A stretch of 64,000 nt of DNA from a virus (lineage: Duplodnaviria > Heunggongvirae > Uroviricota > Caudoviricetes): positions 27,405 to 91,404 of the IMG/VR virus record IMGVR_UViG_3300027819_000008. One strand, written 5' to 3'. Shown here piece by piece: positions 5,376 through 61,592 of the stretch (position 1 is its first letter; each line of letters opens with the position of its first letter). The position numbers were made by a program, and so were the translations under genes. The notes below the pieces were generated by a model. That model was not told the DNA's origin. It did no database searches and saw nothing but the letters and a program-made list of their open reading frames with translations.

Positions 5376-6590
5376 CAGCATCACGATGTGCTCGAACCGC
5401 TTGTCCGCAGACACGAAGTACGCCGTGGTCCCGGCCCCCGCGGCCGGGAGCCAGAACCGACGGCCGACGACCTCGAGCGCCTCCTTGAGGTACTTGCCAT
5501 TGACCGAGAACGTCGTCGGCTCGCCCTGCACCGCGGCCGGGATCTCCTCCTCGGCGCGCGCGTCGGCCTCGGCCACCGTCAGCTTCAGCGAGTCCCGGCC
5601 GACCTCCCCCTGCACCCGGAACGTCGGGGCGGTGGCGAAGTGCAGCAGCCGCTCGAACGCGGCGGCCAGGTCCCCGGTGACGTCCACCCAGGTTCCCCCG
5701 CCGCGGGCGTCCTCCCGGACCTTCTTGAGGGCGCCGGCGAACCCGGCCGTCGGGAACCCCGCGGCCAGGAGCGACCCGTACACCGCCGCGCGCTCCCCGA
5801 GGAAGAACCACACGGTGGCGTCGCCCTCCAGGCACACGGAGGTCGCGTCGCGGCGGCGCGACCCGAGGCGCTCCAGCAGGTGGTCCGGCAGCAGCAGCCC
5901 ACCCTTCGGCGCGGGTGTGCGGTACTCCTTCGGGGGATTCAGCACCGAGATGCGGAACGTGTCGGTGGACAGCAACAGCCCACCCTCCGACCAGTACACG
6001 CCGCGGAGCGGGGGCTTCGTCTCGTCCCGGCACACCGTGAACATCACACGCTCGAGCTCGCCCCACCACCGCGGGTCCAGCGCCGTGCGTGGGGTCTTCG
6101 GCGCCTCCCGCTGCACGTACAGGGACACGTCCTCGGTGCCCGCGGGCCTGTAGCACCCCAGCTGCGCGCGGAACCTCCCGCCCCGGAGACGAATCGTCCC
6201 CTCGTGGGACTCCAGCACCAGCTCCTCCACGGACGAGTCGTTCAGCGACGTCACGATGCGGCGCAGGTGCGCGGCCGAGAGGGCGAACTCCCCGGGGAAG
6301 GTCCACGGCGTGGTGTGCACCGCGCCGGCGGACCCGGAGTTGGACCGGACCGACGTCCCCTGGAACCAGACCTGCTTGAGCCCGGGCACGAGGTCGCGGT
6401 CGGAGGCGAAGTCGCTCGTCAGCGTGATCGCCGGCAGCAGCTCCTCCACCGGGAGCGTGACCCCGGACCCCGGCTTCTTCTTGGCAGCCTTCGGGGCCTC
6501 CGGCCTGTCATCGTCCAGGAAGGACTGGGTGATCTCGGTCACCCCGGTCTCGCTGGTTACCCGCATCTCCGGCGCCCGCTTCTTGGCCAT
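5367..6590 (-). CDS. dnaN: DNA polymerase III beta sliding clamp
   Basis: Aligns with E. coli DnaN: IRLRGGRFRAQL versus RSGRSRFSLSTL, the YWSEGGLLLSTDTFRISV block, and the C-terminus TTAYFVSADKRFEHIVMLLA versus AAYVVMPMRL. ATG at 6590 overlaps the HNH stop (TAATG); the track ORF is over-extended to 6716. Confidence 0.8.
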   Translation of the reverse strand: MAKKRAPEMRVTSETGVTEITQSFLDDDRPEAPKAAKKKPGSGVTLPVEELLPAITLTSDFASDRDLVPGLKQVWFQGTSVRSNSGSAGAVHTTPWTFPGEFALSAAHLRRIVTSLNDSSVEELVLESHEGTIRLRGGRFRAQLGCYRPAGTEDVSLYVQREAPKTPRTALDPRWWGELERVMFTVCRDETKPPLRGVYWSEGGLLLSTDTFRISVLNPPKEYRTPAPKGGLLLPDHLLERLGSRRRDATSVCLEGDATVWFFLGERAAVYGSLLAAGFPTAGFAGALKKVREDARGGGTWVDVTGDLAAAFERLLHFATAPTFRVQGEVGRDSLKLTVAEADARAEEEIPAAVQGEPTTFSVNGKYLKEALEVVGRRFWLPAAGAGTTAYFVSADKRFEHIVMLLA

Positions 6591-7057
6591 TAAACGTGAC
6601 TCCAGGTTTGTCGTCGGCATATGTAAGAAATCATGACTTGAGAAACCCCATACCGTTTCGCAGCGACGCGCTGGCTGATCAGCCCACGCTTTCCTTTGCC
6701 AAGCCCCGGCCCACACACCCGGCGGATCTCTTTCACAACCGCGGCAGTTAGCTTTTTGGCAGCGCGCCCCTTATAAGTCTTGTCCGCCATGTTGGCGGCT
6801 TGAGTACCAAGGAACAGATGCGTCGGCTCGCCGCATGTTCCGGTATCACAGGTGTGGCAGACTTCCAAACCAACGGGGATAACCCCACGCACCAGAGTCC
6901 AGGCTAGCCTATGAACGAGCCAGCAAGTTCTCTGAAAAGTGACCGTGCCGTAAGCACCCCTCTCGTCATTGCACGCACCTTGCCAGAGCAGGCAGCCATT
7001 TGCAGAACGCTTGAACTTAAGCCAGAAGTCTGCCGGCATACTCGCTCGCTGAGGCAT
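6590..7057 (-). CDS. HNH homing endonuclease (free-standing)
   Basis: HNH core: CLLWQG...GYG...LVHRLAW...HTCDTGTCGEPTHLFLGT. The C-terminal tail is HTH-like. Sits between dpdA and dnaN. Confidence 0.8.
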   Translation of the reverse strand: MPQRASMPADFWLKFKRSANGCLLWQGACNDERGAYGTVTFQRTCWLVHRLAWTLVRGVIPVGLEVCHTCDTGTCGEPTHLFLGTQAANMADKTYKGRAAKKLTAAVVKEIRRVCGPGLGKGKRGLISQRVAAKRYGVSQVMISYICRRQTWSHV

Positions 7058-8011
7058 TTAAAAAAAGGACTTCTGCGTTGCCCGGCGCGACCAAGGACGA
7101 TCCACCCAGCTCTTTTCCAGATCGAGAAAAAATAGAACATTAAGCTCGTCGCGCTTCACGTAGTCCGTGGCCAGCTGCTCCGGCGCGTACCCCTTCCCCT
7201 CCACGTACGCAAGGATCGCGGCCTGCTCGGCCGGGGCGTACGTCTTGAAGTGGGCCCCGTCCTCGCTCAGCTTCGGCGAACGGTCGGAGAAGGACACGTT
7301 GTGCACCTTCCCGCCGAGCGGCACGTAGCAGCCGCCGAAGTTGCCGACCTTGACCCACGACGTGCTATCGACCGAGAACCAGGGATACATCTGCATGAGC
7401 GCGATGCTCGTCAGCCCGAACCCGTGGAAGCGGCGGAGGGGCCGGCCCTCATCGTCGGTCAGCAGCTCCATGGAGCGGTCCAGGGACTTGATGCGGTCCG
7501 CGGACGTCAGCCCCGGAGCGGCCAGCCCGCCGAGCGCGAAGTACTCGGCGTGGTCCATGAGCTTCCGGAGCCACTTGAGGTCCTCGCCCCGGTGGTACGT
7601 GTGGATGAGCTGGACGCCGGACCCCCGCAGCTTCTTCTGGAGGTACGCGTAGTTCTCCCACCCGCGCTCCGCGGCGCGCTCCACCTCGGCCGCGGACGCC
7701 GGCTGCCCCGGCTTCCCCGGGATCACGTCCAGGTTGGCGACGACGGTGAACGCGTCCCGGTTCGCGAGGACGAAGTCCGCGTAGTCGTCCAGGTTGATCT
7801 CCGACCCCTTGGCCCAGGCCGTGAACGCCCCGGAGTCCAGGAACAGGTCCACTGCCGGCTTGCCCCCACCGCTCATGAACACCTCCGCCCACGGCAGCCG
7901 CGCCGGGGTCTCGCGCACGATCGCGTACGAGTGCAGGCGGCGCCGCGCCCCGACGCGGGCCACGTTGGCCTCGCGCGTGCGCTCCAGGCTCCCGGCCAGG
8001 TACACCCTCAT
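7058..8011 (-). CDS. dpdA: DpdA-like DNA 7-deazaguanine transglycosylase (TGT superfamily)
   Basis: LFLDSGAFTAW matches the TGT catalytic TDSGGFQ motif. No zinc-site cysteines, which is typical of DpdA. Co-located with the preQ0 biosynthesis genes. The start MRVYLAGS is duplicated in the Q repeats. Confidence 0.6.
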   Translation of the reverse strand: MRVYLAGSLERTREANVARVGARRRLHSYAIVRETPARLPWAEVFMSGGGKPAVDLFLDSGAFTAWAKGSEINLDDYADFVLANRDAFTVVANLDVIPGKPGQPASAAEVERAAERGWENYAYLQKKLRGSGVQLIHTYHRGEDLKWLRKLMDHAEYFALGGLAAPGLTSADRIKSLDRSMELLTDDEGRPLRRFHGFGLTSIALMQMYPWFSVDSTSWVKVGNFGGCYVPLGGKVHNVSFSDRSPKLSEDGAHFKTYAPAEQAAILAYVEGKGYAPEQLATDYVKRDELNVLFFLDLEKSWVDRPWSRRATQKSFF

Positions 8012-8295: not shown

Positions 8296-9193
8296 GGATC
8301 AGCGCGAGGAACTCCGCGCGGGTCTCCGGGTGATCGCGGAAGACGCCGCGCATGGCCGACGTGACCATGGTGCTCTCCGGCTGCCGCACCCCGCGCATGA
8401 CCATGCAAAAGTGCGTGGCCTCCACCACGACGGCCACCCCGCGCGGCTCCAGGGCCTGCTCGAGCTCCAGGGCCACCTGCTGCGTCAGGCGCTCCTGCAC
8501 CTGCAGCCGGCGCGCGTACTTTTCCACCACGCGGGACAGCTTGGACACCCCGATGATCTTGGTGGACGGCAGGTACCCCACGTGGGCGCGCCCGAAGAAC
8601 GGCAGCATGTGGTGCTCGCAGTGGCTGACGAACTGGATGTCCCGCGAGATCACGACCTCGTCGGTCAGCCCGTCCTCGAACGTAGTGAGCGCCGGGGTCA
8701 TCGCGTACCCCCCGAACAGCTCCTTCCACGCCCGGGCCACGCGGGCCGGCGTCTCGCGCAGGCCCTCGCGCTTCGGGTCCTCCCCGAGGAACTCGAGCAT
8801 GCGCGTGATGATCTCGCTGCCGGGTTCCTCCTGCTTCTCGTAGGGGTACACGACCCAGTCGCCGGTCTCCTCCACCAGGTAGGTCGGCACCGACCGCGAG
8901 GCCGGGCGGACGTGGAGCACCGCCGTCAGGTGGTCGGGGTAGCGCGCGAGCGTCTCCCCGCTGTCGCAGATGTCGTCCACCACCAGGCACCCGGGCTCCG
9001 GGGTCTCCAGCAGGACCGGCTCGCGACCGCACTGCTGGGCCAGGGCCCGCGCGAGCAGCATGGCGACCGGGACCCCGCCGCTCGGGACCGGGTAGAGCGC
9101 GTCGAAGCGCGCCCCACGCGCGCAGATTGCGCTGGCCAGCTCCTGGGCCAGCAGGTCCAGCTCCGTCCAGGTGACCCGCCGCTGCACCCGCAT
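8288..9193 (-). CDS. folE: phosphoribosyltransferase-like domain fused to GTP cyclohydrolase I (FolE)
   Basis: The C-terminal ~185 aa carry the FolE signature (FVSHCEHHMLPFFGRAHVGYLPSTKIIGVSKLSRVVE...ATHFCMVMRG). The N-terminal ~116 aa look like a type I PRTase (VPSGGVPVAMLLARAL...LVVDDICDSGETL...WVVYPYE). ATG at 9193 overlaps the queE stop (ATGA); the track N-terminus is out-of-frame overlap. Confidence 0.75.
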   Translation of the reverse strand: MRVQRRVTWTELDLLAQELASAICARGARFDALYPVPSGGVPVAMLLARALAQQCGREPVLLETPEPGCLVVDDICDSGETLARYPDHLTAVLHVRPASRSVPTYLVEETGDWVVYPYEKQEEPGSEIITRMLEFLGEDPKREGLRETPARVARAWKELFGGYAMTPALTTFEDGLTDEVVISRDIQFVSHCEHHMLPFFGRAHVGYLPSTKIIGVSKLSRVVEKYARRLQVQERLTQQVALELEQALEPRGVAVVVEATHFCMVMRGVRQPESTMVTSAMRGVFRDHPETRAEFLALIRR

Positions 9194-9969
9194 CAGGCCA
9201 CGCCCAGCATCTTGTGCGTCTGCAGCGACAGCCGCCACTCCGGGTGATCCATCAGGGCCCGGAGGCAGAGCTCGGTGGCGCGCCGGGAGCAGGACATGGG
9301 CTGGACCGTCAGGGAGATCGGCCGGCGCGCGTCGCGCGGGCGCAGGTCCTGGGTCAGGCGCAGGTGCTCGGCGTGCCGGGACAGGAACACCTCGTAGGCC
9401 ACCACGTCGCGCTCGCTGCCGACGATCCACTTGACCTCGTTGGCCTCCGCGAGCACGTGCGGGTGGATCTGCAGGCGCCCGGCCGGCTTCGGCGAGACGC
9501 ACACCCAGTCCCACACGCCGGAGATGGGGTACACCCCGGAGGTCTCCAGCGCGGTCTTGATCCCGTGCCGGTGCAGCGCCGAGGTCAGCGCCCCGCAGTC
9601 GTGCCACAGGGGCTCGCCGCCGGTGACCAGCGCCCAGCGCGGCGGGTGGCCGTTGACGACGTCCCCCACCTGAGACGCGCTGAGGTCGGGCGCCGGAATC
9701 GGCCTACCCTCGTCCCCACCCGACAGCGAGGAGAAATTCTGGTCCCAGCTCTCCGGCGTGTCGCAGAAGATGCACCCGACCGGGCAGCCCTGGAGGCGCA
9801 CGATGGTCATCGGTGTGCCGCAGAGCGAGCCTTCCCCCTGCACGGTGGGGTAAATGCGATTGATCCTGTACCGCGTATAGTCGCGGCGGTTGAGCGGCCA
9901 GTCCGCACCGGAGGGGGCGACCGCGCCGTACTGTGCGGGTGTGAGGACCCGGTCCGCCGCGGGGATCAC
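9193..9969 (-). CDS. queE: 7-carboxy-7-deazaguanine synthase QueE (radical SAM)
   Basis: CPVGCIFC matches the Cys-x3-Cys-x2-Cys radical-SAM motif. LVTGGEPL and LSLQTHKMLG blocks are typical of QueE. Confidence 0.85.
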   Translation of the reverse strand: MIPAADRVLTPAQYGAVAPSGADWPLNRRDYTRYRINRIYPTVQGEGSLCGTPMTIVRLQGCPVGCIFCDTPESWDQNFSSLSGGDEGRPIPAPDLSASQVGDVVNGHPPRWALVTGGEPLWHDCGALTSALHRHGIKTALETSGVYPISGVWDWVCVSPKPAGRLQIHPHVLAEANEVKWIVGSERDVVAYEVFLSRHAEHLRLTQDLRPRDARRPISLTVQPMSCSRRATELCLRALMDHPEWRLSLQTHKMLGVA

Positions 9970-10346
9970 TCACCGTACTCCGCGCGCGACGTGCACGTCT
10001 CGTCGATCACCACCGCCCGAAGCCGGACCCCGGGCAGGTCCACCAGGTGGGCGCGCACGCGCTCGAACAACCACCGCGCGATGTTTTCCGACGTCGGGTG
10101 TCGCATGTTGAGCGTCTCGTTCAGGTAGTGGTGATCCAGGTACTGCTCCACGAGCGGCTGCACCGCGGCCTTGAGGTCCCCGTAGTCCGCCAGCATGCCG
10201 GCCTTGGCCCCGTCCTGCTGCAGGTACGGCCCGACGACGCGGACGCGCCCCCGCCAGGAGTGGCCGTGGAGCCTCTGGCAGCGACCATCGTGGTCCGGCA
10301 GCTTGTGGGCCGCCTCGAACGTGAATTCTTTCTCCAGCACGTACAT
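9966..10346 (-). CDS. queD: 6-carboxytetrahydropterin synthase QueD
   Basis: FEAAHKLP...CQRLHGHSW motif characteristic of PTPS/QueD. 126 aa. Confidence 0.85.
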   Translation of the reverse strand: MYVLEKEFTFEAAHKLPDHDGRCQRLHGHSWRGRVRVVGPYLQQDGAKAGMLADYGDLKAAVQPLVEQYLDHHYLNETLNMRHPTSENIARWLFERVRAHLVDLPGVRLRAVVIDETCTSRAEYGE

Positions 10347-10934
10347 TCACGCACCTCCGTCATGCATGCAGCGCTTCTCGGCCGCGCACCCGCCGTCCGG
10401 CGTCGTCAGGCAGTCCGCGTCCGGTGGGCGGCGCAACCGGCGCCACACCCACAGCGCGAACACGGCCACCGCCGTCACCCACGCCTTGCCGACAACCTGC
10501 CCGGGGAGGTACTGCAGGGACCCGAACGCGAGCGCGAGGAAGAGCGCGCTGTCCACCACGAGGCCGACCGCGTTGGACGCGGCCACCGCGAGCAGCCACC
10601 GGCGGCGCCGCAGCGGGGCGTACACCGCGAGGTCCGCGAGCTCGGACAGCAGGAACGCCGCCCCGCTCGCCAGCGCGAACGCCGGGGACACCACCGCAGA
10701 GCAGAGCGCCCCGAGAACCACAGCGGCCAGGACCCCGCGAAGCCCGACCGCGTCGTGCAGCAGGTCGCGCAGGGTGAACGTCAGGCCGGCGAAGTACACC
10801 CCCGCGGGGGCCAGCAGGCCGAAGCCGACGGGGACCGGGCCGAGGTGCACGATCGCGAGGTTGGCCGCGAAGATGGTCCCGATGAACGCGGCCATCAGGC
10901 CGCTGACCCGACCCGACACCGGCCCGATCCGCAT
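10347..10934 (-). CDS. putative YhhQ/Vut-family queuosine-precursor transporter (membrane)
   Basis: Multi-pass membrane protein containing an ...TFTLRDLLHD... block, positioned between queC and queD. ATG at 10934 lies 11 nt after the queC stop. The upstream part of the track ORF is junk. Confidence 0.45.
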   Translation of the reverse strand: MRIGPVSGRVSGLMAAFIGTIFAANLAIVHLGPVPVGFGLLAPAGVYFAGLTFTLRDLLHDAVGLRGVLAAVVLGALCSAVVSPAFALASGAAFLLSELADLAVYAPLRRRRWLLAVAASNAVGLVVDSALFLALAFGSLQYLPGQVVGKAWVTAVAVFALWVWRRLRRPPDADCLTTPDGGCAAEKRCMHDGGA

Positions 10935-10945
10935 GCCCGGGCCGC

Positions 10946-11623
10946 TCACGCCGCGTACTCCGTCGGGTCCGCGACGCCGGCGAGGTCGAAGGCCTCGCGC
11001 CTCTCGGTACACGTCCCACAGCGCCCGCAGTGGACCGGCCCTCCCTCGTAGCACGACCACGTGGCTGCGAACGGAACCCCGTGGTCCGCACCGACGGCCA
11101 CGACGGCCGCCTTGGTGACGTTGAGGAACGGGGCGTTCAGCCGAATGCCCGGCGCGTAGTGGCACTCGCGCGCGGCACCCTGCATGGCGCGCACGAAGTC
11201 CCCGCGGCAGTCCGGATAGATCGCGTGGTCCCCGGCGTGGGCCGCGTACGCGACCTCCTCCGCGCCCGAGGAGATGGCCCAGCCGATGGCCACGGCCAGC
11301 ATGATCATGTTGCGGTTCGGGACCACCGTCAGCTTCATGGTCTCGTCCGCATAGTGTCCGTGTGGAACCGCGACGTCGTCGCTGGTCTGGGAGGACCCGG
11401 CCAGAAACGGGCGCAGCGCGGTGAGATCGGCCACGCGGTAGGGAACCCCGAGCACGCTGCAGATGGCGCGCGCGGCCTCCAGCTCCTTCCGGTGACGCTG
11501 CCCGTAGTCGATCCCGAGCGGCAGCACCTCGTGTCCGGCACCGCGCAGCATGTAGAGGAGCGTCGTGCTGTCCAACCCGCCGGAATAGATGACCACGGTC
11601 TTCATCGCGCGCTGATCCCCCAT
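10946..11623 (-). CDS. queC: 7-cyano-7-deazaguanine synthase QueC
   Basis: SGGLDS PP-loop motif and a CGRCGTC zinc site near the C-terminus. Confidence 0.9.
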
Positions 11624-14955: not shown

Positions 14956-15014
14956 CCGGGGGTTGGGACCCGGCTCCCGCATTACACGGGGGGCGAACCC
15001 CCGTGCCCTCTGCG
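14956..15014 (-). promoter_or_regulatory. R-element copy 1 (two-hairpin conserved 5' leader)
   Basis: On the minus strand: GCAGAGGGCAC, hairpin CACGGGGG-UUCG-CCCCCGUG, GUGUAAUGCGGGAGC, then hairpin 2 CCGGG-UCCCAAC-CCCGG, then a Shine-Dalgarno site. Confidence 0.55.
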
Positions 15015-20379: not shown

Positions 20380-20440
20380 CCGGGGGTTGGGACCCGGCTC
20401 CCGCATTACACGGTGGGGCGGGCCCACCGTGCCCTCTGCG
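20380..20440 (-). promoter_or_regulatory. R-element copy 5
   Basis: Hairpin 1 is CACGGUGGG-CCCG-CCCACCGUG. Hairpin 2 is identical to copy 1. Confidence 0.55.
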
Positions 20441-20977: not shown

Positions 20978-21004
20978 GGTAGTCGTCTCCTTTGGGGGTG
21001 CACT

Positions 21005-21070
21005 GCGTCCTCTGCCTTTGGGTCCCGACTTGGAACGGGCCGCGCGGTGCGCGCGGGTGGCATTACGCTC
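21005..21070 (-). promoter_or_regulatory. R-element copy 6 (rearranged variant)
   Basis: GUAAUGCCAC, hairpin CCGCGCGCACCGCGCGG, then GGGACCCAAAGGCAGAGGA, then AAAGGAG Shine-Dalgarno site and ATG. Confidence 0.4.
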
Positions 21071-21289
21071 GTGGCGTACCCGGGGACGTGCGGCCGGCGG
21101 CGGTCATGTGATGACCCGCCATGTGGTGGCCCTGGTCCCCGTTCAGCTGGCGACCCGTCCGGCGCCTCCATCGTGCGCCTTGGGGTGGGGGTCTGGCCCT
21201 GCGTCCGCCGTGGTCCCCCTTACCGCCCCGCCGGGTTTTGCTGGTCCCGGCTACCCACCGCGTTCACTGCAACTCCCTACCTGACACCA

Positions 21290-21375
21290 CCATTAAACCA
21301 CCCCCGGGGGTGTTGATCAAGCGAAAAAATCAGGGGGTTTTATTGGGGTTTTCGCGTGTTTTGGCCCCCGCGCAA
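21290..21375. promoter_or_regulatory. AT-richer repeat tract (GGGGTTTT x3, CCCCCGGGGG, TTGATCAA) in a large intergenic region
   Basis: Local GC is far below the genome average. Lies between the primase stop and the early small-gene cluster. A nearby inverted repeat GGTCAT-GTG-ATGACC is at 21102-21116. Confidence 0.3.
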
Positions 21376-21426
21376 CGGTGGGTCAAGCACAGATCCCGGC
21401 GCGCACCGGAGGAACATTAAGGCGCC

Positions 21427-22443
21427 CTAATACCCGCGCAGGATGTCCGAGACCAGCGAGGCGGGGCCCGCGCCCGCGCTCCGGCGCTCCAGATCCGCCC
21501 CGGAGCCGGAATCCTTGCCGCCGACCCACGCGCCGACCTGCACCGGGAACCCCCACGCGCGCAGGTCCTCGGCGTACAGCCGGCCCCGGGCCTGTGCCGC
21601 GGGCTCGTTGTCCAGCGCGGGGATGACGCGCGACGGCTCCAGCGCCGCGATCAGCGCCAGCTTCTCCGGCGTCAGCGCGACGCCGAGGAGCGCGAGCGCG
21701 TGCGGGCGGCGGTCACGGTCGTCGCGGTGCCAGCGCATGGCGTCCCCCGGACCCTCCACCAGCAGCAGCTCCGCGCCGCGCAGCTCCGGCCGGTAGTTGA
21801 AGAGCATGGCGGAGGCCGGACGCCCGCACTCCTTCATGTAGGCCGACGTGCGGTACTTCGGCTCCTGCCCCGGCAGCAGCGCGCGGGCCTGGAACGCGAC
21901 CGGCCCCGGCATGCAGATCGGGATGACGATGCGGCGCGCGTAGGGCCCTGACCAGCACGAGCCGAGGCCCCACACCGCGGCCTGCGACCAGCCGAGCCCC
22001 CACTGGCGCTGTAGGAACCCGGCCGCGCCCCGCGTGAGCGGGGAGGTGGGACTGAGGTCGCGCAGCCAGCGGACCTCCTTCGGGAAGGTGACCCAGTCGT
22101 CCCCGCGCTCCGGGACGGGCGCGCGCGCGGTGGGGGCGCCACGGAACTCCCGGAGCAGGAACTGCCAGGCCTCGGGCCGGGTGATGCGTTCCACGCGAGC
22201 GACCCACTCCGCGGCCCCGCCGTCCAGGCGCTCATTTGCCGCGCACCCGAGGTTGAAGCACCCGGCCGTCCACCCGGTGACGGAGAGCCACCCACGACCC
22301 TTGCGCTCGCCGCAGAGCGGGCAGTCGAAGGTGCGGACGCCCTGATCGTAGCCGCGCCCGCCGGCCGTGTTGCGGATCGTGACGCGCCGAGTGAGGTAGC
22401 GCTCCAGGTCCACGGTGAGCCGCGCGGTGGCCCAGCCGGTCAC
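21427..22443 (-). CDS. DNA primase (zinc finger + TOPRIM, DnaG/T7-gp4-like)
   Basis: CPLCGERKGRGW...GCFNLGC zinc finger. TOPRIM motifs LLLVEGPGDAMR (EGxxD) and ALDNE (DxD). Confidence 0.8.
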   Translation of the reverse strand: MTGWATARLTVDLERYLTRRVTIRNTAGGRGYDQGVRTFDCPLCGERKGRGWLSVTGWTAGCFNLGCAANERLDGGAAEWVARVERITRPEAWQFLLREFRGAPTARAPVPERGDDWVTFPKEVRWLRDLSPTSPLTRGAAGFLQRQWGLGWSQAAVWGLGSCWSGPYARRIVIPICMPGPVAFQARALLPGQEPKYRTSAYMKECGRPASAMLFNYRPELRGAELLLVEGPGDAMRWHRDDRDRRPHALALLGVALTPEKLALIAALEPSRVIPALDNEPAAQARGRLYAEDLRAWGFPVQVGAWVGGKDSGSGADLERRSAGAGPASLVSDILRGY

Positions 22444-22452
22444 AACAGTAGA

Positions 22453-22520
22453 GGAGGGAACGCCGGGAGTTGAACCCGGTCACCCGGCTTGTGGCCAGAG
22501 CTCACGTGGCTTACGTTCCC
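22453..22520 (-). ncRNA. tRNA-like minihelix (perfect 7-bp acceptor stem + canonical T-arm, no D/anticodon arms)
   Basis: On the minus strand: GGGAACG, UA, a 32-nt spacer, T-stem CCGGG, T-loop UUCAACU, T-stem CCCGG, CGUUCCC, then U and CC. Too short (66 nt) for a canonical tRNA. Confidence 0.35.
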
Positions 22521-22530
22521 CGTGGCGAAC

Positions 22531-22797
22531 CTACCGCGTCCAGCCCTGCTGCTTTGGCACCGGAGGCGGTGTGCGTGGATCCGGCGCGCGCAGGCGCTCG
22601 GCCATCGCCGCGTCGCCGATCTTGGTCAGCTCGGCTAGGGCCTCCCGCTCCATCAGCGCCGCGTTCTCGCCGACCTGGGCCGCCGTCATCTTGGCCTCCC
22701 CCGGCAGGGCGGCGTCCCACCCCAGCTCCAGCGTGACCTCCTCGGCCTCGTACTGCTTCGGCTGCCACTGCCGGCGCCAGCGGATGAGCAGCCTCAC
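22531..22797 (-). CDS. hypothetical protein (88 aa)
   Basis: GTGA overlap start. Confidence 0.3.
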   Translation of the reverse strand: MRLLIRWRRQWQPKQYEAEEVTLELGWDAALPGEAKMTAAQVGENAALMEREALAELTKIGDAAMAERLRAPDPRTPPPVPKQQGWTR

Positions 22798-22991
22798 GCG
22801 CTGAGCTCCTCCTCGATGGCCACGTGGTCGTAGGCCCCGAGGAGGAGCGTGACCTTGTGGTCCGGGGTCTCGGTGCTGTAGTGGGCCCCCACGAACGCCA
22901 GCGACTGGTCCCCGACGATCGGGTTGGAGGAACTGCGCCACACGGTCGCCTTGCCCGACGCCGCGGTCACCACGGTGATCTTGTACTTCAC
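22794..22991 (-). CDS. hypothetical protein (65 aa)
   Basis: Lower-GC codon usage (MKYKITVVTAASGKATVW...). Confidence 0.35.
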   Translation of the reverse strand: MKYKITVVTAASGKATVWRSSSNPIVGDQSLAFVGAHYSTETPDHKVTLLLGAYDHVAIEEELSA

Positions 22992-23215
22992 GTCTCACTC
23001 CTTTTGCGCCCATCCACGTAGCCGAGGAACGCGTCGCGTGGCAGCGCTCGGGCTACCGGCCAGCCGTACATGATGTGGCCGACCTGGACGTTGAGGGCCG
23101 CGCGCTCCTGGGCCTGCTCCGGCGTCGTCCCGTCATTGCACAGGACGATCAGCCGCGACACGATGCGCTGGTCCCAGGTGAGCGGCCGCGGGTTGTGCTC
23201 GAAGGCGCTGTGCAT
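22988..23215 (-). CDS. hypothetical protein (~75 aa)
   Basis: ATG at 23215 (MHSAFEHNPRPLTWDQRIVSRLIVL...). The track N-terminus is junk. Confidence 0.3.
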   Translation of the reverse strand: MHSAFEHNPRPLTWDQRIVSRLIVLCNDGTTPEQAQERAALNVQVGHIMYGWPVARALPRDAFLGYVDGRKRSET

Positions 23216-23220
23216 GTTCG

Positions 23221-24504
23221 CTATCCCTTCACGCAGAGGACACCCTTGAGCACGTGCACCACGTCCACCAGGTCGGCCTGCGCGGCCATGACCGCGTCTA
23301 TGTCCTTGTAAGCTGCCGGCGTCTCGTCCAGCACCCCGGCATCCTTGCGGCACTCCACGCCGGCCGTCGCGGCCTCGTGGTCGGCCACCGTGAACTCCCG
23401 CTTGGCCCGGCCACGCGACATGCGGCGCCCGGCCCCGTGGCTGCACGACTGGAACGACTCGGGGTTCCCCCTGCCGCGCACGATGTACGACCGCGCGCCC
23501 ATGCTGCCGGGGATGATGCCGAGGTCGCCGAGGCCGGCGCGGACCGCGCCCTTGCGGGTCACCAGCACCCGCTCGCCGAAGTGGACCTCCTCGGCGACGT
23601 AATTGTGATGGCAGTTAACGACGACCTCGCACGCCCCGAGCCCCGACGCCCAGTAGGGCGCGCTGCCGCTGGGCGCGAAGGCGAACGTGTGCTTCTGGAC
23701 CGCGGCGAGGACGGCGCGCAGCATGACCTCCCGGTTGGTCGCGGCGTATCGCTGTGCCCACCCCACCGCCTCGACGTAGTCGTCGTACAGCGGCGTGCCC
23801 CGCGACAGCCACGACAGGTTCGGGTCGTGGCCCTGCGGGAGGCCGGCCGCGGCCTGTGGGAGCGTGGCGAACGCCATCTCCAGCGGGTGCGTCGCGACGT
23901 ACTCCTTGGCCTTGTCGATGAAGTACTGCCCGATGCCGTTGCCGACCCCGCGGCTGCCGCTGTGGAGCATGACCCACACGCGCTGCTCCTCGTCCAGGCA
24001 CACCTCGACGAAGTGGTTGCCCCCGCCGAGCGTCCCGAGCTGACAGAGTGGCGTCTGGCGCCGGCTCCTGACCGCCAGCGGGTGCTTCTGGTGAATCGCC
24101 GCGTAGCCGGCGGCTAGCGGATTCACACCGCCCGCCCACTCCCCGAACGGCGCGCGATCCTCCCGGTGGGCGCCGAACCCGACCGGCACGCCCCACTCTA
24201 TGTCCGCGCGCATGGTCTTCAGGCTCTCCGGCAGGTCGGACGCGGTCAGCGGCGTGCGCGCGGCAACCATGCCGCACCCGATGTCCACCCCGACCGCGGC
24301 CGGCACGATTGCCCCCACGGTCGCGACCACCGACCCGATCGTTGCGCCCATGCCCCAGTGCACGTCCGGCATCACCGCGAGGTGGCGAAAGATGAACGGC
24401 AGGGCCGCCGTGTTCCGCAACTGGTTCAGCGCCTCGTGCTCGACCTCGACGCCGTCGGTCCACATCTTGATCGGCGCGCGCCCCTTTTCCACGATCTCCC
24501 TCAT
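23221..24504 (-). CDS. rtcB: RtcB RNA 3'-phosphate/2',3'-cyclic phosphate-5'-OH ligase
   Basis: MPDVHWGMGATIGSV, GCGM, GGGNHFVEV, HSGSRGVG, NCHHNY, GSMG and SCSHGAGR motifs. ATG at 24504 overlaps the upstream TGA. Confidence 0.9.
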   Translation of the reverse strand: MREIVEKGRAPIKMWTDGVEVEHEALNQLRNTAALPFIFRHLAVMPDVHWGMGATIGSVVATVGAIVPAAVGVDIGCGMVAARTPLTASDLPESLKTMRADIEWGVPVGFGAHREDRAPFGEWAGGVNPLAAGYAAIHQKHPLAVRSRRQTPLCQLGTLGGGNHFVEVCLDEEQRVWVMLHSGSRGVGNGIGQYFIDKAKEYVATHPLEMAFATLPQAAAGLPQGHDPNLSWLSRGTPLYDDYVEAVGWAQRYAATNREVMLRAVLAAVQKHTFAFAPSGSAPYWASGLGACEVVVNCHHNYVAEEVHFGERVLVTRKGAVRAGLGDLGIIPGSMGARSYIVRGRGNPESFQSCSHGAGRRMSRGRAKREFTVADHEAATAGVECRKDAGVLDETPAAYKDIDAVMAAQADLVDVVHVLKGVLCVKG

Positions 24505-28391: not shown

Positions 28392-31103
28392 CTACTGCGG
28401 GCCAGGGACGGCTCCGACCAGGGCGTGACCCTGCTCGCGGTACAGGCGCACGCGCTCCAGGGTGTGGAGCGCGAGGTGGTCCTTGTCCGGTCGGTCGGTC
28501 GGGGCGCCCCCGTCGGCGAAGTCGTACACGTCCACGGTGGTCTTGTCCGCGCGCGGGCGCAGCGCCCGGCCCAGGGCCTGCAGCGTGTCCACCTCGGACT
28601 TCCCCCCGGCCGCGTTCACGAACGCATCTATCTCCGGCAGGTCCACCCCCTCGCGGAAGAACGGGGTCGCGATGAGGAGCGCCCCGGTCGTAGCAGCCCG
28701 GAACGCCCCGAGCACGGCCTCGGCCCGCCCGGTCCCGACGTCGTCCCGGTCCAGCTGCCAGCACGGGTACTGCCGGGACACCGCGGACCACCAGTCGTGC
28801 AGGGCGCGGGCGTGCTCCACGATGCGGCACAGGACGAGGACCCGGTGGCCCTGCTTGGCGTGGTGCATCGCGATGCGCAGCACCCGCGCGTTCCGCTCCC
28901 GGTTGGTGGTGATCCCCCGCTCGTAGAAGGTGCCGTACAGCTGACTCCCCATCGTCTGCAGCCGGCGCGGGTCCCTCTTCCAGTCCGGGAGCACGATCTC
29001 GCGGACGTCCTCGTAGGACGGGTAACTCGAGGCCGGCGGACGCACGAAGCGGATGGTCGCGCGCGCCAGGTAGCCCTGCTGCGTCAGCGCGGTCGTGTCC
29101 GTCAGCACCACGATCGGGCCAAGCGCCCCCTCCATGTGCAGAGCGCGGACGGGGTCCTTGATGTTGACCGCGGTGCCCGACAGCCCGAGGCGGGTGCGCG
29201 CGCCGACGCACGCCTTGGCCACCGCGAGCCACGTCGCCGCGCTCGCGTGGTGGCAGTTATGTACTATGAGTCCCAAGCCTACGATGTAGGTGTGGGCGCG
29301 CTCGACTTCAAGGTTGTAGACGTAACCGTCTGGACACACGCCTCCAAATGTTCCATCACGTCCCGGTTCGAGAACCTCAACACTGTCCACCCGGCGCCTT
29401 TCAGGAAGTCTTCTTTCCGCTTGTCCCGGGCCCGTACCATCCGCGATCCGTGGCTCCCGCCGTCCACTTCTATCGCGATCTTCTCGGCTTTGTTCGCCAC
29501 ATCCACCTTGTAATGACTGGGGAGCCCCCTGAAAGCCGGACGCCGCCCCGTAGACACGACGACTTCCACTGGCCAACCTAATGCGTTGGCAAGTGCTTGC
29601 TGGGCAGCGGGGATCGGTTTCCCGTTGCCCCCTTGCGTCCGCGGCTTGTGGCCCATTGCTCGCAAGGTGGAGGAAACTTTCGCCCGCGACGTTGGGGACC
29701 TCATTGGGTTGTGCACCCGCATTCGTTGGGAGGCGCAACGTCGGTTCGTCGCGGCCATCGTTCTTGACGAGAGCTGTGCACACCACAGGCGCCGACACCG
29801 CTCGCTGCAATAGGCGCGTCTCACTGAGCGCCAAAGGTGCCGGGTTCCCTTGGTTGTGACTTTGGTCAACTCGCCACACCACGTGCACGTTACTTGAATC
29901 TCCGTCGGCCCCCACAGGCGGCGAGCCAGAGCCTTGAATTTCGCTGAAGCTTCCAGCTTGGCCTGCGTTGTTCGACACGTCGCGGAGCAGTATGCACGGG
30001 CCGATCTTCTGTAAAGCTTTCTCGCTACAGGTGTTTCCACCCGCGTTGCTTTCTGACATGTCGTGCACGGAACTTCTAATGGTACTGTCATGGTGCGTCC
30101 AGCATAACACAACGGACCCGGCGCAAAGTTTACCCGCAGCTACCCAGCCAGTTTCCGTCAAGATTGGGTGGTTCGGAGTGCAGACTATCTTTTCCCCGGA
30201 GACTGTGAGTCGTACCAAGCTTAAAGCGCGACTCCGCATGGTGTGAGTAACTTTGGCCATGACGTAACTGTCCTGGTACCACGCGGGGACAACGTCCCCC
30301 ACCTGAATAGATGAGATGGGTACATTGCCAACCATGGTGGACCCTGGAAAGCACTCGTCCTCTATCAGCATGTCGAAGTCCCGGAAGTACGGCGCGGTCA
30401 CCGAGTTCTTCAGCGAGGCCGTGAGCCCGACGGTGACCTCCCCCAGCTGGAACTCCCCGTCCCCGACCACGCCGAGGGTGACGGTCGGGAGGGACTCGCG
30501 CAGCTGGTCCAGCGTCTGCCGGAGCAGCGCCTGCGTCGGGACCACCCACAGCACGCACCCGCCGTGCTGGCGGGCCATCTCCACCCCGATCTTGGTCTTG
30601 CCGCCGCCGGTCGGGCACTGCAGGATCAGGCGGGGGACCGGCAGCGTCCGGAAGAGCTGGAAGGCCTGCAGCTGGTACGGGCGCCACTCTATGGTGGTGG
30701 GTGGTGCGAGTGGGAGTCGCTGCTGCGCGGTCTCCCGGGGCTCCACGAGGGCCACCCGGTACTTGTGCTCCTGCAGCACGCGCTGGACGCGCGCGAGGAG
30801 GCCGGTCTCAAACGAGTTGCCGGGTCGGCGCAGGAACTTGGTGCTGCCGTCCCAGCCAAACTTGGAGGCCCGGCTGTACTTGGCCTTCGGGTTCTTGACG
30901 GACAGTGCGGTGCTGACGAGCTCCACGGCCTCGTCGGGCCCGGTCAGGACCGAGCGCACGACGCCGACCCGGATCGTGCAGTCCGCGGTGTCCACGTCCC
31001 CTATATCCTGCGAGGTGGGTTGTATGGCGCGCACCGAACGCGCTACCATAGGGACCTCACCGTGCCTCTGGGTTAGCTGCAGCGCCCCGGGTCCGGCGGC
31101 CAC
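28392..31103 (-). CDS. SF2 DECH-box DNA helicase (ResIII/XPB-like) interrupted by an intein
   Basis: Walker A ILQCPTGGGKT. Motif II DE|CH is split by the intein (LIEDE + intein + CHHAS). Motif VI is QALGRALRP. GTG at 31103; an alternative ATG lies at 31049. Confidence 0.8.
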   Translation of the reverse strand: MAAGPGALQLTQRHGEVPMVARSVRAIQPTSQDIGDVDTADCTIRVGVVRSVLTGPDEAVELVSTALSVKNPKAKYSRASKFGWDGSTKFLRRPGNSFETGLLARVQRVLQEHKYRVALVEPRETAQQRLPLAPPTTIEWRPYQLQAFQLFRTLPVPRLILQCPTGGGKTKIGVEMARQHGGCVLWVVPTQALLRQTLDQLRESLPTVTLGVVGDGEFQLGEVTVGLTASLKNSVTAPYFRDFDMLIEDECFPGSTMVGNVPISSIQVGDVVPAWYQDSYVMAKVTHTMRSRALSLVRLTVSGEKIVCTPNHPILTETGWVAAGKLCAGSVVLCWTHHDSTIRSSVHDMSESNAGGNTCSEKALQKIGPCILLRDVSNNAGQAGSFSEIQGSGSPPVGADGDSSNVHVVWRVDQSHNQGNPAPLALSETRLLQRAVSAPVVCTALVKNDGRDEPTLRLPTNAGAQPNEVPNVAGESFLHLASNGPQAADARGQRETDPRCPASTCQRIRLASGSRRVYGAASGFQGAPQSLQGGCGEQSREDRDRSGRREPRIADGTGPGQAERRLPERRRVDSVEVLEPGRDGTFGGVCPDGYVYNLEVERAHTYIVGLGLIVHNCHHASAATWLAVAKACVGARTRLGLSGTAVNIKDPVRALHMEGALGPIVVLTDTTALTQQGYLARATIRFVRPPASSYPSYEDVREIVLPDWKRDPRRLQTMGSQLYGTFYERGITTNRERNARVLRIAMHHAKQGHRVLVLCRIVEHARALHDWWSAVSRQYPCWQLDRDDVGTGRAEAVLGAFRAATTGALLIATPFFREGVDLPEIDAFVNAAGGKSEVDTLQALGRALRPRADKTTVDVYDFADGGAPTDRPDKDHLALHTLERVRLYREQGHALVGAVPGPQ
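29256..30353 (-). mobile_element. intein (366 aa) in helicase motif II
   Basis: Block A CFPGSTMV, block B GEKIVCTPNHPILT, block F VYNLEVERAHTY, block G IVGLGLIVHN followed by extein Cys. The central ~250 in-frame aa are low-complexity. The surrounding region has lower GC. Confidence 0.75.
29279..30112 (-). CDS. DUF559/Vsr-like (PD-(D/E)xK) endonuclease with two zinc ribbons, nested in the +1 frame inside the intein
   Basis: Two CxxC...YCSxxC repeats. C-terminal region HYKVDVANKAEKIAIEVDGGSHGSRMVRARDKRKEDFLKGAGWTVLRFSNRDV matches the DUF559 core. The frame differs from the intein frame. Confidence 0.65.
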   Translation of the reverse strand: MCYAGRTMTVPLEVPCTTCQKATRVETPVARKLYRRSARAYCSATCRTTQAKLEASAKFKALARRLWGPTEIQVTCTWCGELTKVTTKGTRHLWRSVRRAYCSERCRRLWCAQLSSRTMAATNRRCASQRMRVHNPMRSPTSRAKVSSTLRAMGHKPRTQGGNGKPIPAAQQALANALGWPVEVVVSTGRRPAFRGLPSHYKVDVANKAEKIAIEVDGGSHGSRMVRARDKRKEDFLKGAGWTVLRFSNRDVMEHLEACVQTVTSTTLKSSAPTPTS

Positions 31104-59312: not shown

Positions 59313-61256
59313 TCAGCTCTCCGTCGTGGGTCCACGCCCCACCCCCAGCGTGCGGCGCGCCGCCTCCCTCGACCGCCTCGTCACCGCCTTGCTAAACCGC
59401 CCGGCGTCGTCGCGCGGGTGCTCCGACTCGTCAAACTCCTTGGCCTCCGCCACCAGCCGAATGACCACCGGGATGCTGCCGTCGGCCGGCATGAAGAGGA
59501 CCTCGCCCACCTGGGCCTCGGCGTCGAAGAACGCCAGGTCCCCGTCCAGCTCGGGGCAGCAGCCCGGCCGCACGTACGCGAGCGTCAGGTGGGGGACGTA
59601 CGCGGGCTGGGTGTCCTCGTGGGGCAGCGCGCCGAGCGCGTCGTGCAGGGCCACCAGGTCGTCGGACTGCACGCTGGCGTAGAGCACGTCCGCGTCGGGC
59701 TGCCGGAAGCGCCGGACGTCCCCGAGCTTGAGGTGGACCGGCCCGCGGCCGCGCAGCAGCGGGGCGACCCGCTCCGCGGTGACCCCCGGGTCCAGGCCGT
59801 AGCGCACGGTCACGTGCGGGTGCAGCTCCCGGCCGCCCTCGGCCAGGTCCCCGTCGGCCACGCGGTCCCGGGCCCACGCGAGCGCGGCCTCGGCGAGGTG
59901 CTCCGGCAGCTCGACCTGGGTGCTCGCGTACTCGTGCGGTGCGCCCTTGATCAGGCTCTCGGCGCGGGTCCAGTCGGCCTCACTCTGCTCCAAATGCTTT
60001 CTGGGCTTGGCCCCCACCGACTCGCGATAGTCCAGGACCCACGCCGGCGCAAACTTGAAGCCCGCCCGCTTCCAGAAGCGCACCCGGTGATTGCCGTCCA
60101 GCACGGTCAGCCGCGACTTGCCGTCGCGCCCCTGGGAAACTACCCGGGGCGACCGGTCCTCGGCGTCCGGGCGCCCCCAGTCAGTCTTGGGCGCCTCTCC
60201 GGGCTCCATCGGGCGCCACGTCCCGACACGATCCTCCGGGCCTTCCCCACCGCCACCGGACTCATCACCACCTCCGCCCCCGCCCGAACCGAAGCGCCCG
60301 TCCTCGTCTCTCGGGGGGTCCTCCTCGTTCCACTCGCCCTTAGTCCAGCCCGGCACGACCGCCCGGCGCTCCACCTTCTGGAAGCGCAGGACGACCGCAC
60401 ATCTGCAGCCGGGATGCGCCGGTGGGCGGAAGTAGGCCTCGCCATTCGGGTGCTCAAACGGTGCGTCCAGGGAGGTCTCAGCTTCGTCCAAACTTTCACA
60501 AATCTTTATGTCCACGCGATCGTCCTGCGCGGTACTCCAGACGCGCGTGGTCTCTTCGCGGTCCAGCAGGCCCTCGTTCGCGGCGGCCTGCCACAGGGCC
60601 TCCTGCCCCGCGGAGCTTGCATTTATAGTCTCGGTTCTCGCGATGTTCATGGCGCGGTAGTCCAGCAGTGCGTCGGCGTACTTCGCGACGCGGCGCTCGA
60701 CCCTGGCCGCGGACTCCCCACCCTCGACCAGCCGCGCGCGGAACTTGGCGACGGCCTCGATCTGCCGGGAGTGCAGGCCGACCACCCGCCGGATCTCCTC
60801 GGCCAGGTCGGTCGGCGCGATCCCCTGCTCCTGCGAGCGCAGGACCAAGGCGCGCACGCCGGCGCGGGTGGAGTCGGTCAGCTCTGTCACGAGCTCCGCC
60901 CCGTGCTCGCGCACCCACGCGATGCTCAGCGGGTTCTTGAGGTCGAAGCCGAGCGGTCCCTCCTCCACCCCGATGAGCTCCGCCCCGAGCGACACACCCA
61001 GCGCGAAAGTCCGGCCGAGCAGGGGGTCCAGCAGGCGCTTGACGGTGTCCGGCAGTACGCGGTCCAGCAGCGCGGCCACCTCCACCTGGGACAGGGAGCC
61101 CGAGCGCAGGGCCTCGGCCAGCGCCCCGACGTCCACCTGTGAGGCCGTGGAGCGCGCGGCGCGCCGAAAGGCGCGGGCGACGTGGGGCTCCATGCGCGCG
61201 GCAAGCCGTGTCATCAGCGGGTCGCGGTCCGAGGGCGCCTTGTACCGGGACCCCAT
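59313..61256 (-). CDS. MuF/SPP1-gp7-like minor head protein fused to a ParB/Srx-like domain and a 2H (LigT-like) phosphoesterase domain
   Basis: MuF block NIARTETINASSAGQE...PPAHPGCRCAV. Then LTVLDGNHRVRFWKRAG (the ParB/sulfiredoxin DGxHR motif). The C-terminus has two His-x-Thr-x motifs (HPHVTV and PHLTLAY). The start is uncertain: track 61463, likely ATG near 61256. Confidence 0.65.
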   Translation of the reverse strand: MGSRYKAPSDRDPLMTRLAARMEPHVARAFRRAARSTASQVDVGALAEALRSGSLSQVEVAALLDRVLPDTVKRLLDPLLGRTFALGVSLGAELIGVEEGPLGFDLKNPLSIAWVREHGAELVTELTDSTRAGVRALVLRSQEQGIAPTDLAEEIRRVVGLHSRQIEAVAKFRARLVEGGESAARVERRVAKYADALLDYRAMNIARTETINASSAGQEALWQAAANEGLLDREETTRVWSTAQDDRVDIKICESLDEAETSLDAPFEHPNGEAYFRPPAHPGCRCAVVLRFQKVERRAVVPGWTKGEWNEEDPPRDEDGRFGSGGGGGGDESGGGGEGPEDRVGTWRPMEPGEAPKTDWGRPDAEDRSPRVVSQGRDGKSRLTVLDGNHRVRFWKRAGFKFAPAWVLDYRESVGAKPRKHLEQSEADWTRAESLIKGAPHEYASTQVELPEHLAEAALAWARDRVADGDLAEGGRELHPHVTVRYGLDPGVTAERVAPLLRGRGPVHLKLGDVRRFRQPDADVLYASVQSDDLVALHDALGALPHEDTQPAYVPHLTLAYVRPGCCPELDGDLAFFDAEAQVGEVLFMPADGSIPVVIRLVAEAKEFDESEHPRDDAGRFSKAVTRRSREAARRTLGVGRGPTTES

Positions 61257-61592
61257 CACGACACCACCCGGCGCGCGTGGGGGGCCGGTGGCGGCAGGAG
61301 GCGACGCTCGCGCTCCACCTTCTCCGCGTAGCTGTCGGCGGCCGGGCGCTTGACCAGCTTCCCGGTGCGCTCGTCCACCTTCCAGGACCCCCGGTGGGCC
61401 TGCGGGTGCACGTCCATCAGCTACACAGCAGGTCGCGCCACTCGGCGCGGGTCTGCCCCTCATAGCGCTGGCGGGAGAAGAACTCCACGCACTGATCGAG
61501 GTTTTCCTGGGAGTACTCGTGATCGCACATTAGCCGCGGCTCCGCCGGCAGCGCGGGGTCTATGACCAGGTAGAAGAACAAGCAGAACAGGC

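Follow-up and report, generated by a model that had tools for sequence, protein, structure and literature searches.

A tRNA-shaped element beside the primase gene of a tailed phage and its possible role as an RNA processing signal

The window, that is the whole 64,000-nucleotide stretch of DNA analysed here, belongs to the genome of a tailed phage recovered from groundwater and soil metagenomes. The same genome is found at 99.98% identity in assemblies from NCBI, JGI, ENA and Logan, where its contigs reach 100.8 kb. Nearly all genes in the window lie on the minus strand. Around the element considered here, the order of transcription is DnaB, two small open reading frames (ORFs), RtcB, three small ORFs, the element and the primase; beyond the primase there is a 449-nt gap, followed by many small genes and a UvrD helicase. 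The features of the locus, together with one more distant gene, are:

21427..22443, minus strand: DnaG-type primase gene, its GTG start at 22443 backed by the N-terminus conserved in the relative L092
22444..22530, minus strand: intergenic spacer of 87 nt, filled by the tRNA-like minihelix
22531..22797, minus strand: ORF of 88 aa, function not assigned, its stop codon 9-10 nt upstream of the element
23221..24504, minus strand: RtcB RNA ligase, 427 aa, its stop codon 700 nt upstream of the element
59313-61463, minus strand: MuF protein with a C-terminal 2H phosphoesterase domain (Pfam 2_5_RNA_ligase2)

The phage RtcB is approximately 60% identical to bacterial RtcB proteins. A preliminary description of this DNA had placed RtcB about 700 bp from the element and a 2H phosphoesterase domain on the MuF protein, both of which are recovered here; the latter, a cyclic-phosphodiesterase-type domain, may be packaged into the capsid through its fusion to MuF. 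The element had also been described as abutting the primase start, and 22444-22530 is indeed the exact gap between the stop codon of the 88-aa ORF and the primase GTG. The primase gene consequently starts 87 nt from the upstream stop, with no recognisable Shine-Dalgarno sequence in the segment between element and start codon (CCUCUACUGUU). The element itself is divided as follows:

22514..22521, minus strand: 5' strand of the closing ("acceptor") stem, GGGAACG (22520-22514), preceded by G-1 (22521)
22480..22513, minus strand: middle region of 34 nt, with U8 and A9 (22513-22512), an optional hairpin and a 3-nt "variable loop", UGA
22463..22479, minus strand: T-arm look-alike, CCGGG UUCAACU CCCGG (stem 22479-22475, loop 22474-22468, stem 22467-22463)
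22455..22462, minus strand: 3' strand of the closing stem, CGUUCCC (22462-22456), and discriminator U22455

Read along the minus strand from 22520 to 22456, the element is thus GGGAACG-UA-(32 nt)-CCGGG UUCAACU CCCGG-CGUUCCC. On its 5' side, the UAG stop of the upstream ORF is followed by GUUCGCCAC, then G22521, with CCA-C a short way ahead of the element, as in tRNA arrays; on its 3' side, U22455 is followed by C22454, C22453 and a U, and then by the remainder of the segment leading to the primase GUG at 22443. All 12 stem pairs (seven in the acceptor stem and five in the T stem) are Watson-Crick, and the T hairpin sits flush on the 3' strand of the closing stem with a linker of zero. The T loop matches the tRNA consensus throughout (G53, U54, U55, C56, R57, A58, Y60 and C61), while G22521, at position -1, could pair with U22455 to give an 8-bp stem ending in a G.U pair. 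This read-out bears out the perfect 7-bp acceptor stem and canonical T arm noticed originally, as well as the U8, the discriminator U and the CC that follows it. The interval between the acceptor 5' strand and the T stem, previously counted as 32 nt, is 34 nt when U8 is included. The statement that neither a D nor an anticodon arm can form holds for the former, as no D arm is possible and a D stem would destroy the hairpin of the middle region; it fails for the latter, as a hairpin at the position of the anticodon arm, UCUGG CCACAAG CCGGG (22499-22483), is possible. This hairpin, taken from relaxed ARAGORN output and from the cmscan alignment to tRNA-Sec, is weak (5 bp closing a loop of 7 nt, with two G.U pairs), and the 34-nt middle region is ill-defined in the folding ensemble.

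The rarity of this arrangement was assessed with a strict descriptor comprising a 7-bp acceptor stem with at most one G.U pair, a flush 5-bp T stem, a TTCRANY loop and a spacer of 8-130 nt. It has a single match in the 64-kb window, turns up in 10 of 300 dinucleotide-shuffled versions (0.033 per window on average), and over 403 kb of fetched related loci otherwise hits solely genuine tRNAs confirmed by ARAGORN. Nested stems without the T-loop sequence are not unusual in DNA of 70% GC (28 observed against 24.7 expected), and neither is the folding energy of the element relative to shuffled sequences (z = -0.39). Hence the signal lies in the T-loop sequence, the flush stacking and the filling of an inserted spacer, rather than in stem pairing or stability as such. 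When folded in isolation or with 30-nt flanks, the acceptor stem and T arm lead the ensemble, with pair probabilities of 0.65-0.99. With at least 60 nt of flanking mRNA the acceptor stem is predicted with a probability of about 5%, and a minihelix enforced in this context still lies only 0.5-2.5 kcal/mol above the minimum free energy. The T-arm hairpin is more robust, most of its stem pairs having probabilities of 0.9-0.99 with flanks of up to 150 nt and of 0.2-0.66 with flanks of 250 nt.

The element is not a decoding tRNA. Although it shares with the canonical tRNA (Rfam RF00005 and the tRNA clan) a 7-bp acceptor stem on a 5-bp T stem with a UUCRANY loop, U8, a discriminator followed by CC and a length of 66-67 nt, it differs in lacking a D arm and G18G19, in its 3-nt variable loop, and in an anticodon-position loop (CCACAAG) that has C33 instead of U33 and ACA in place of the anticodon. 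Running tRNA finders had been suggested as a check, and neither ARAGORN nor Rfam accepts the element as a tRNA. ARAGORN reports no tRNA at its default, 95% or mitochondrial-default settings and no tmRNA with the -m option; at an 80% threshold only implausible folds appear, including a D-arm-poor "Cys(ACA)" in mitochondrial mode. The best Rfam match is to tRNA-Sec, at 19.3 bits (E = 0.63) against a gathering score of 47, followed below threshold by mascRNA at 14.9 bits and the Tymovirus tRNA-like element at 14.3 bits; no ribozyme or Y-RNA family of Rfam matches the element. A tRNA-Sec was rejected as an identity: the 8/5 geometry is common to both, but the element has no UCA anticodon and no long variable arm. 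No tRNA gene was detected in the approximately 79 kb of the phage genome examined.

A relaxed T-loop pattern has 26 genomic matches, of which 12 are tRNAs: ten tRNA-Lys(UUU) from low-GC Gracilibacteria (CPR), one archaeal tRNA-Phe, and one tRNA-His from a Kofleriaceae metagenome-assembled genome (MAG; L058). The T loops of these genomic tRNAs differ from that of the element. The sole match in IMG/VR is also a tRNA-His (L093, UViG_3300038492_000581). Among tRNAs from high-GC genomes or viral contigs, only these two tRNA-His have the same T-stem and acceptor 3' strands. Both share with the element G-1, the GGG..CG/CGUUCCC acceptor strands and the T-stem 3' strand CCCGG, and in L058 the agreement extends to the CCAC 5' flank, to both strands of the T stem (CCGGG/CCCGG) and to C at position 33; unlike them, the element has U rather than C as its discriminator and no GUG anticodon. 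The middle 34 nt show no significant similarity to the tRNA-His and tRNA-Lys genes that share its stems. A weak match to a tRNA-Leu of L058 was also recorded (p = 0.01).

The nearest distinct relative of the phage, L092, comes from the same groundwater project. On L092, the homologue of the 88-aa ORF ends 4 nt before the primase GTG; this is the only diverged homologue found for the 88-aa protein (77% identity). The primase N-terminus, V-G-W-A-x-A-R-L-T-V-D-L-E-R, is kept in L092, whereas RtcB is absent from its DnaB-primase block. The 4-nt junction and the lack of RtcB in this block of L092 imply that the element is a lineage-specific insertion of approximately 83 nt at a stop/start junction. 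RtcB, 0.7 kb upstream, was likewise gained by the lineage of the window relative to L092, and no RtcB was found in the fetched loci of any of the relatives. In more distant primase relatives the primase start is mostly near an in-frame upstream stop, with no comparable spacer, and the stop/start junction in the relatives looks translationally coupled.

Searches for further examples of the element returned nothing. It is invariant in all available copies, which are those of the 99.98% identical genomes and so offer no covariation in the stems, and there is no further copy or partial repeat elsewhere in the genome. Near and protein-level BLAST searches of the locus against 50,697 GenBank phages gave no match, nor did scans of IMG/VR with the primase and the exact element sequences. 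Searches of 50 primase-relative loci with blastn-short, nhmmer and the strict and relaxed descriptors recovered true tRNAs only, and the surroundings of the best-matching RtcB homologues (72% and 68% identity) contain no tRNA-like element. A recent singleton insertion of this kind may be neutral.

Downstream of the primase, on the same strand as the element, successive intergenic gaps contain five or six twister ribozymes identified with Rfam models:

14957-15014, minus strand: Twister-P5, above the gathering score
16534-16596, minus strand: Twister-P5, above the gathering score
18845-18903, minus strand: Twister-P5, above the gathering score
19477-19514, minus strand: weak sixth twister
20381-20440, minus strand: Twister-P5, above the gathering score
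21004-21069, minus strand: type-P1 twister, 43 bits, E about 1e-6

Only the primase gene separates the element from the first of these. Every P5 copy starts at a stop codon or no more than about 10 nt from one, and a strong Shine-Dalgarno sequence, itself ahead of a start codon, lies within approximately 2-12 nt of the end of every twister. Cassettes of stop, twister, Shine-Dalgarno and start also occur in relatives, with up to eight in succession (eight in L007, seven in L010 and one each in L003 and L009). To judge from these genomes, the arrangement looks like a fixed gene-cassette design in this phage clade. Twister cleavage generates 2',3'-cyclic phosphate and 5'-OH ends, which are substrates of RtcB (PMC8782182, PMC4787814). 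The twisters point to self-cleavage of mRNA, not to cleavage of tRNA. A theme of tRNA cleavage and repair had been proposed for this locus: RNA cleavage and repair is supported, in that twisters yield ends that RtcB can join, while tRNA as the target is not.

The element shares with the twister cassettes (RF02684, RF03160) its intergenic position and strand, and the stem CCGGG/CCCGG is also the P4 stem of the twisters at 20440 and 15014. Compared against the twister hallmarks (UAA, GAGGG, P2 and the P4 loop pseudoknots), it lacks the GAGGG/P2 core, and only a P4-like hairpin aligns. It differs further in having no catalytic core, no covariance-model match (twister models applied to 22000-23000 gave none at E <= 10) and no downstream Shine-Dalgarno sequence, and in possessing a closing stem that the twisters lack. 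Without a Shine-Dalgarno sequence, the element does not copy the design of the twister cassettes.

The reading tentatively favoured here, as one possibility among several, is that the element is a putative tRNA-mimic processing signal, which would be cut by host RNase P and by 3'-end enzymes. For bacterial RNase P, and likewise for RNase Z and the CCA-adding enzyme at the 3' end of tRNA, the smallest recognised shape is an acceptor/T-arm stack bearing a T loop and a 3' N-C-C; the presence of this shape is the reason that a processing signal is preferred. The insertion would put a tRNA-shaped RNA into the mRNA of the replication genes, after the RtcB block and ahead of the primase cistron. Host RNase P would be expected to cut just 5' of G22521 or G22520, and the 3' enzyme near U22455; the messages of the RtcB block and of the primase would thereby become separate, and a stable RNA of approximately 67 nt would be set free. 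Such RNase P-type cuts would parallel those made by twisters ahead of the downstream genes, with the differences that they would leave 5'-phosphate and 3'-OH ends rather than the 5'-OH and cyclic phosphate of twister cleavage, and that the insertion would bring no ribosome-binding site.

Several lines of evidence count towards a processing signal. The coaxial acceptor/T-arm minihelix, T loop and 3' NCC of an RNase P substrate are present in the element, the shape being weak with flanks of at least 60 nt. The T-loop consensus, the ensemble with short flanks and the rarity of descriptor matches are accompanied by the observation that the fold fills a spacer missing in L092 and other primase relatives. 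Intercistronic RNA cleavage, by the predicted twisters, is heavy both in this phage and in its relatives, and RtcB and the element are jointly present here and jointly missing from the L092 block. Against it stand the acceptor-stem probability of about 5% with flanks of at least 60 nt, an energy no better than that of shuffled sequences, the invariance of all copies, the failure to find a diverged homologue in IMG/VR, at the 50 loci of primase relatives or in the vicinity of the closest RtcB homologues, and the lack of a Shine-Dalgarno sequence after the element. Other known tRNA-like processing signals include those of the mascRNA type and the RNase P-processed phage RNAs C4 of P1 and CI of P4; the element differs from mascRNA in scoring just 14.9 bits in that model. 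A 7-bp acceptor-like stem is the major determinant for cleavage of the Mycobacterium smegmatis YrlA RNA by M1 RNA (Chen et al., PMC4201824), and in plant mitochondria the ends of mRNAs are set by tRNA-like t-elements (PMC1920247). Like the t-elements, the element is an acceptor/T-arm mimic inside a longer transcript and beside coding regions; it differs from signals of this type in lying in a double-stranded DNA phage of a high-GC host, as a single lineage-specific insertion rather than a conserved family, and its cleavage is putative.

The first main rival, slightly less probable than a processing signal, is that a tRNA gene, possibly tRNA-His-like, was acquired at the gene junction, lost its D arm and anticodon identity, and persists as an inert remnant with no present function. 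The net gain of about 80 nt corresponds to one tRNA gene, and the G at -1, the CCA-C just upstream, the two stem-sharing tRNA-His with G-1 in L058 and L093, the rejection by tRNA finders and the occurrence as a singleton without conservation are all in keeping with such an origin. However, uniform decay would not predict 12 intact stem pairs and an intact T-loop consensus around an unrecognisable middle; this middle is not significantly like that of either tRNA-His gene, and the examined part of the phage genome has no other tRNA gene. The resemblance to the 3' half of a tRNA, a common att site, had also prompted the suggestion that the element is an attP core through which the phage would integrate into a tRNA gene of its host, a reading for which the present results leave almost no room. 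In agreement with the earlier observation that the window has no integrase, no integrase domain was found among 30 window ORFs scanned against Pfam, a subset of those in the window; the proposed check elsewhere also came back empty, no integrase being present among the precomputed Pfam families of the gene calls in 15 kb of additional genome. The window and this extension together account for about 79 kb of a genome of approximately 96 kb. The 22-mer from the T loop to the acceptor end, GGGTTCAACTCCCGGCGTTCCC, has no exact match in one genome from each of 185,579 species (GTDB), nor does a 24-mer of the 3' half of the element in IMG/VR, and the relaxed search led only to the CPR tRNA-Lys, archaeal tRNA-Phe and tRNA-His, which belong to improbable hosts or differ in the T loop. 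Furthermore, the 5' acceptor strand, needless for an attP core, is present and perfect, and the possession by the phage of its own PolA, clamp, helicases and primase, alongside RecA, points to a lytic lifestyle. A function in trans, with the tRNA mimic acting as a decoy for host nucleases that attack tRNA, as a partner or substrate of the phage RtcB or as a Y-RNA-like module, is very unlikely. Such a function would fit the RtcB gene 700 nt upstream, co-acquired relative to L092, and the MuF-2H-phosphoesterase fusion, which adds to the theme of RNA ends; bacterial YrlA RNAs mimic tRNA and are encoded in operons with RtcB and Ro60 (PMC4201824). YrlA resembles the element in having a T arm and an acceptor-like stem near RtcB, and the M. 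smegmatis RNA, with its 7-bp stem, is cut by RNase P, but the element lacks a Ro60 gene, the Ro-binding helix, the D arm that YrlA keeps, and an Rfam match. No Ro60/TROVE protein was found among the ORFs scanned against Pfam and no Y-RNA family matches in Rfam; a Y RNA was rejected on the lack of the Ro60 gene. The closest RtcB homologues have no such element nearby. A decoy for anticodon nucleases, as originally proposed, is improbable in particular, as CCACAAG has C at position 33 and offers such a nuclease no genuine anticodon loop to recognise.

The second main rival, itself unlikely, is that the element is a catalytically dead chimera derived from one of the phage's own twisters, in which the "T arm" would be a mutated P4 hairpin and the likeness to tRNA coincidental. 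The segment CGGGUGACCGGGU-UCAACUCCCGGCG aligns with CGGGAG-CCGGGUCCCAACCCCCGGCG of the twister at 20440, the 3' part of the element being identical at 22 of 27 positions to the P2b-linker-P4 portion of the twisters at 20440 and 15014. Only 0.07-0.2% of genomic 92-101-mers attain its local score of 25. One C deletion and one C-to-U change suffice to turn the twister P4 loop into the T-loop consensus, and the element is intergenic, on the strand of the twisters and one gene from the first of them. Yet genuine tRNAs with the same T stem already obtain 16-20 of the 25 points against that twister, so the likeness is mostly generic: twister P4 hairpins are intrinsically T-arm-like, and the alignment lends a twister origin weak support. 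Global alignments of the whole element to any twister are not significant (p = 0.05-0.5), no twister model matches, and the GAGGG/P2 core is missing. The twisters of the window, and nearly all of those in relatives, have the Shine-Dalgarno sequence that is absent here, and a twister origin leaves the perfect 7-bp closing stem flush with the hairpin unaccounted for. A likeness between the reverse complement of the element and the twister P1 hairpin (p = 0.017) was discarded as a by-product of hairpin palindromy. Distinctly unlikely as well is a purely structural or regulatory spacer, a stable stem-loop that would shield the RtcB-block mRNA at its 3' end, act as a partial terminator, or uncouple and lower translation of the primase. 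In its favour, 87 nt without a Shine-Dalgarno sequence stand in place of the 4-nt junction of L092, which suggests translational coupling there, and the T-arm hairpin is strongly predicted with flanks of up to 150 nt, but neither the exact T-loop consensus nor the flush 7+5 stacking is accounted for. A terminator scan found none at the element, and a terminator was rejected for want of a U tract; a replication origin or primase recognition hairpin was likewise rejected, the spacer having no AT-rich region or iterons. Finally, a pure chance resemblance in GC-rich DNA of unrelated origin is highly improbable. The folding z-score is ordinary, and the expectation of 0.033 descriptor matches applies to each of many windows screened; against this, the fold takes up the whole of an inserted spacer and does so on the coding strand, and in the 403 kb of related DNA the descriptor finds true tRNAs only.

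If the element is a true RNase P/RNase Z signal, as the favoured processing-signal reading has it, a double-stranded DNA phage would be punctuating its polycistronic mRNA with a tRNA mimic. Punctuation of this sort is known from mitochondria, and here it would stand beside punctuation by ribozymes in the same genome. Both tRNA-like processing elements and phage-associated twisters are already known kinds; a minihelix mimic inserted among phage replication genes, with a twister array close by, would be a new form of these, if real, and is a putative singleton. Were the element only a decayed tRNA or a twister fragment, it would be ordinary. The larger value lies in its context, namely the stop-twister-Shine-Dalgarno-start design of the clade, to which one member has added RtcB; this combination offers a testable system for the function of bacterial and phage twister ribozymes.

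A broader proposal treats the tRNA-like insertion, the RtcB gained with it, the 2H phosphoesterase carried on the capsid and the twister cassettes as parts of one programme of RNA-end remodelling. Twisters would cut the mRNAs into single-gene units with 5'-OH and cyclic-phosphate ends, RtcB would reseal or circularise these, and the tRNA mimic would be the one site handed over to host RNase P. As a whole this scheme is very improbable. Within it, given G-1 and the 8-bp stem, the mimic might yield a CCA-tagged or histidine-chargeable minihelix. The engineered twister/RtcB "Tornado" system is an artificial counterpart of the circularisation of RNA proposed here for the phage.

Some further features of these genomes were recorded. 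The 449-nt non-coding gap (20978-21426, minus strand) contains an A/U-rich stretch, AAAACCCCCUGAUUUUUUCGC, especially at approximately 21290-21350. In the same gap, a U-run is followed by the promoter-like sequence TTGATC-17 nt-TTTAAT, which a promoter scan did not flag, and the type-P1 twister sits at the end of the gap, just ahead of the next gene. The promoter-like sequence and the U-run that precedes it raise the possibility that the twister array may be a separate transcription unit, with an operon boundary in the gap. The Kofleriaceae MAG contig that carries one of the two tRNA-His genes (L058, JBDHVH010000033.1) has ten tRNA genes in 2.3 kb (5698-7954); its tRNA-His has two U.U mismatches in the acceptor stem as well as C at position 33, and the array may be phage-type or otherwise unusual. 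The ORF at 28392-31103 on the minus strand, encoding a DEAD/ResIII-type helicase of 903 aa, has matches to Hint and intein-splicing domains at residues ~256-354, which suggests that it carries an intein. A cluster for the synthesis of 7-deazaguanine, the queuosine precursor, lies at ~9193-11623 on the minus strand, and at 120-3437 of L086. It comprises QueC, a radical-SAM protein, a PTPS (QueD-like) protein, GTP cyclohydrolase I, a Vut_1/YhhQ-type transporter and DUF6884, a gene content which suggests that the phage modifies its DNA.
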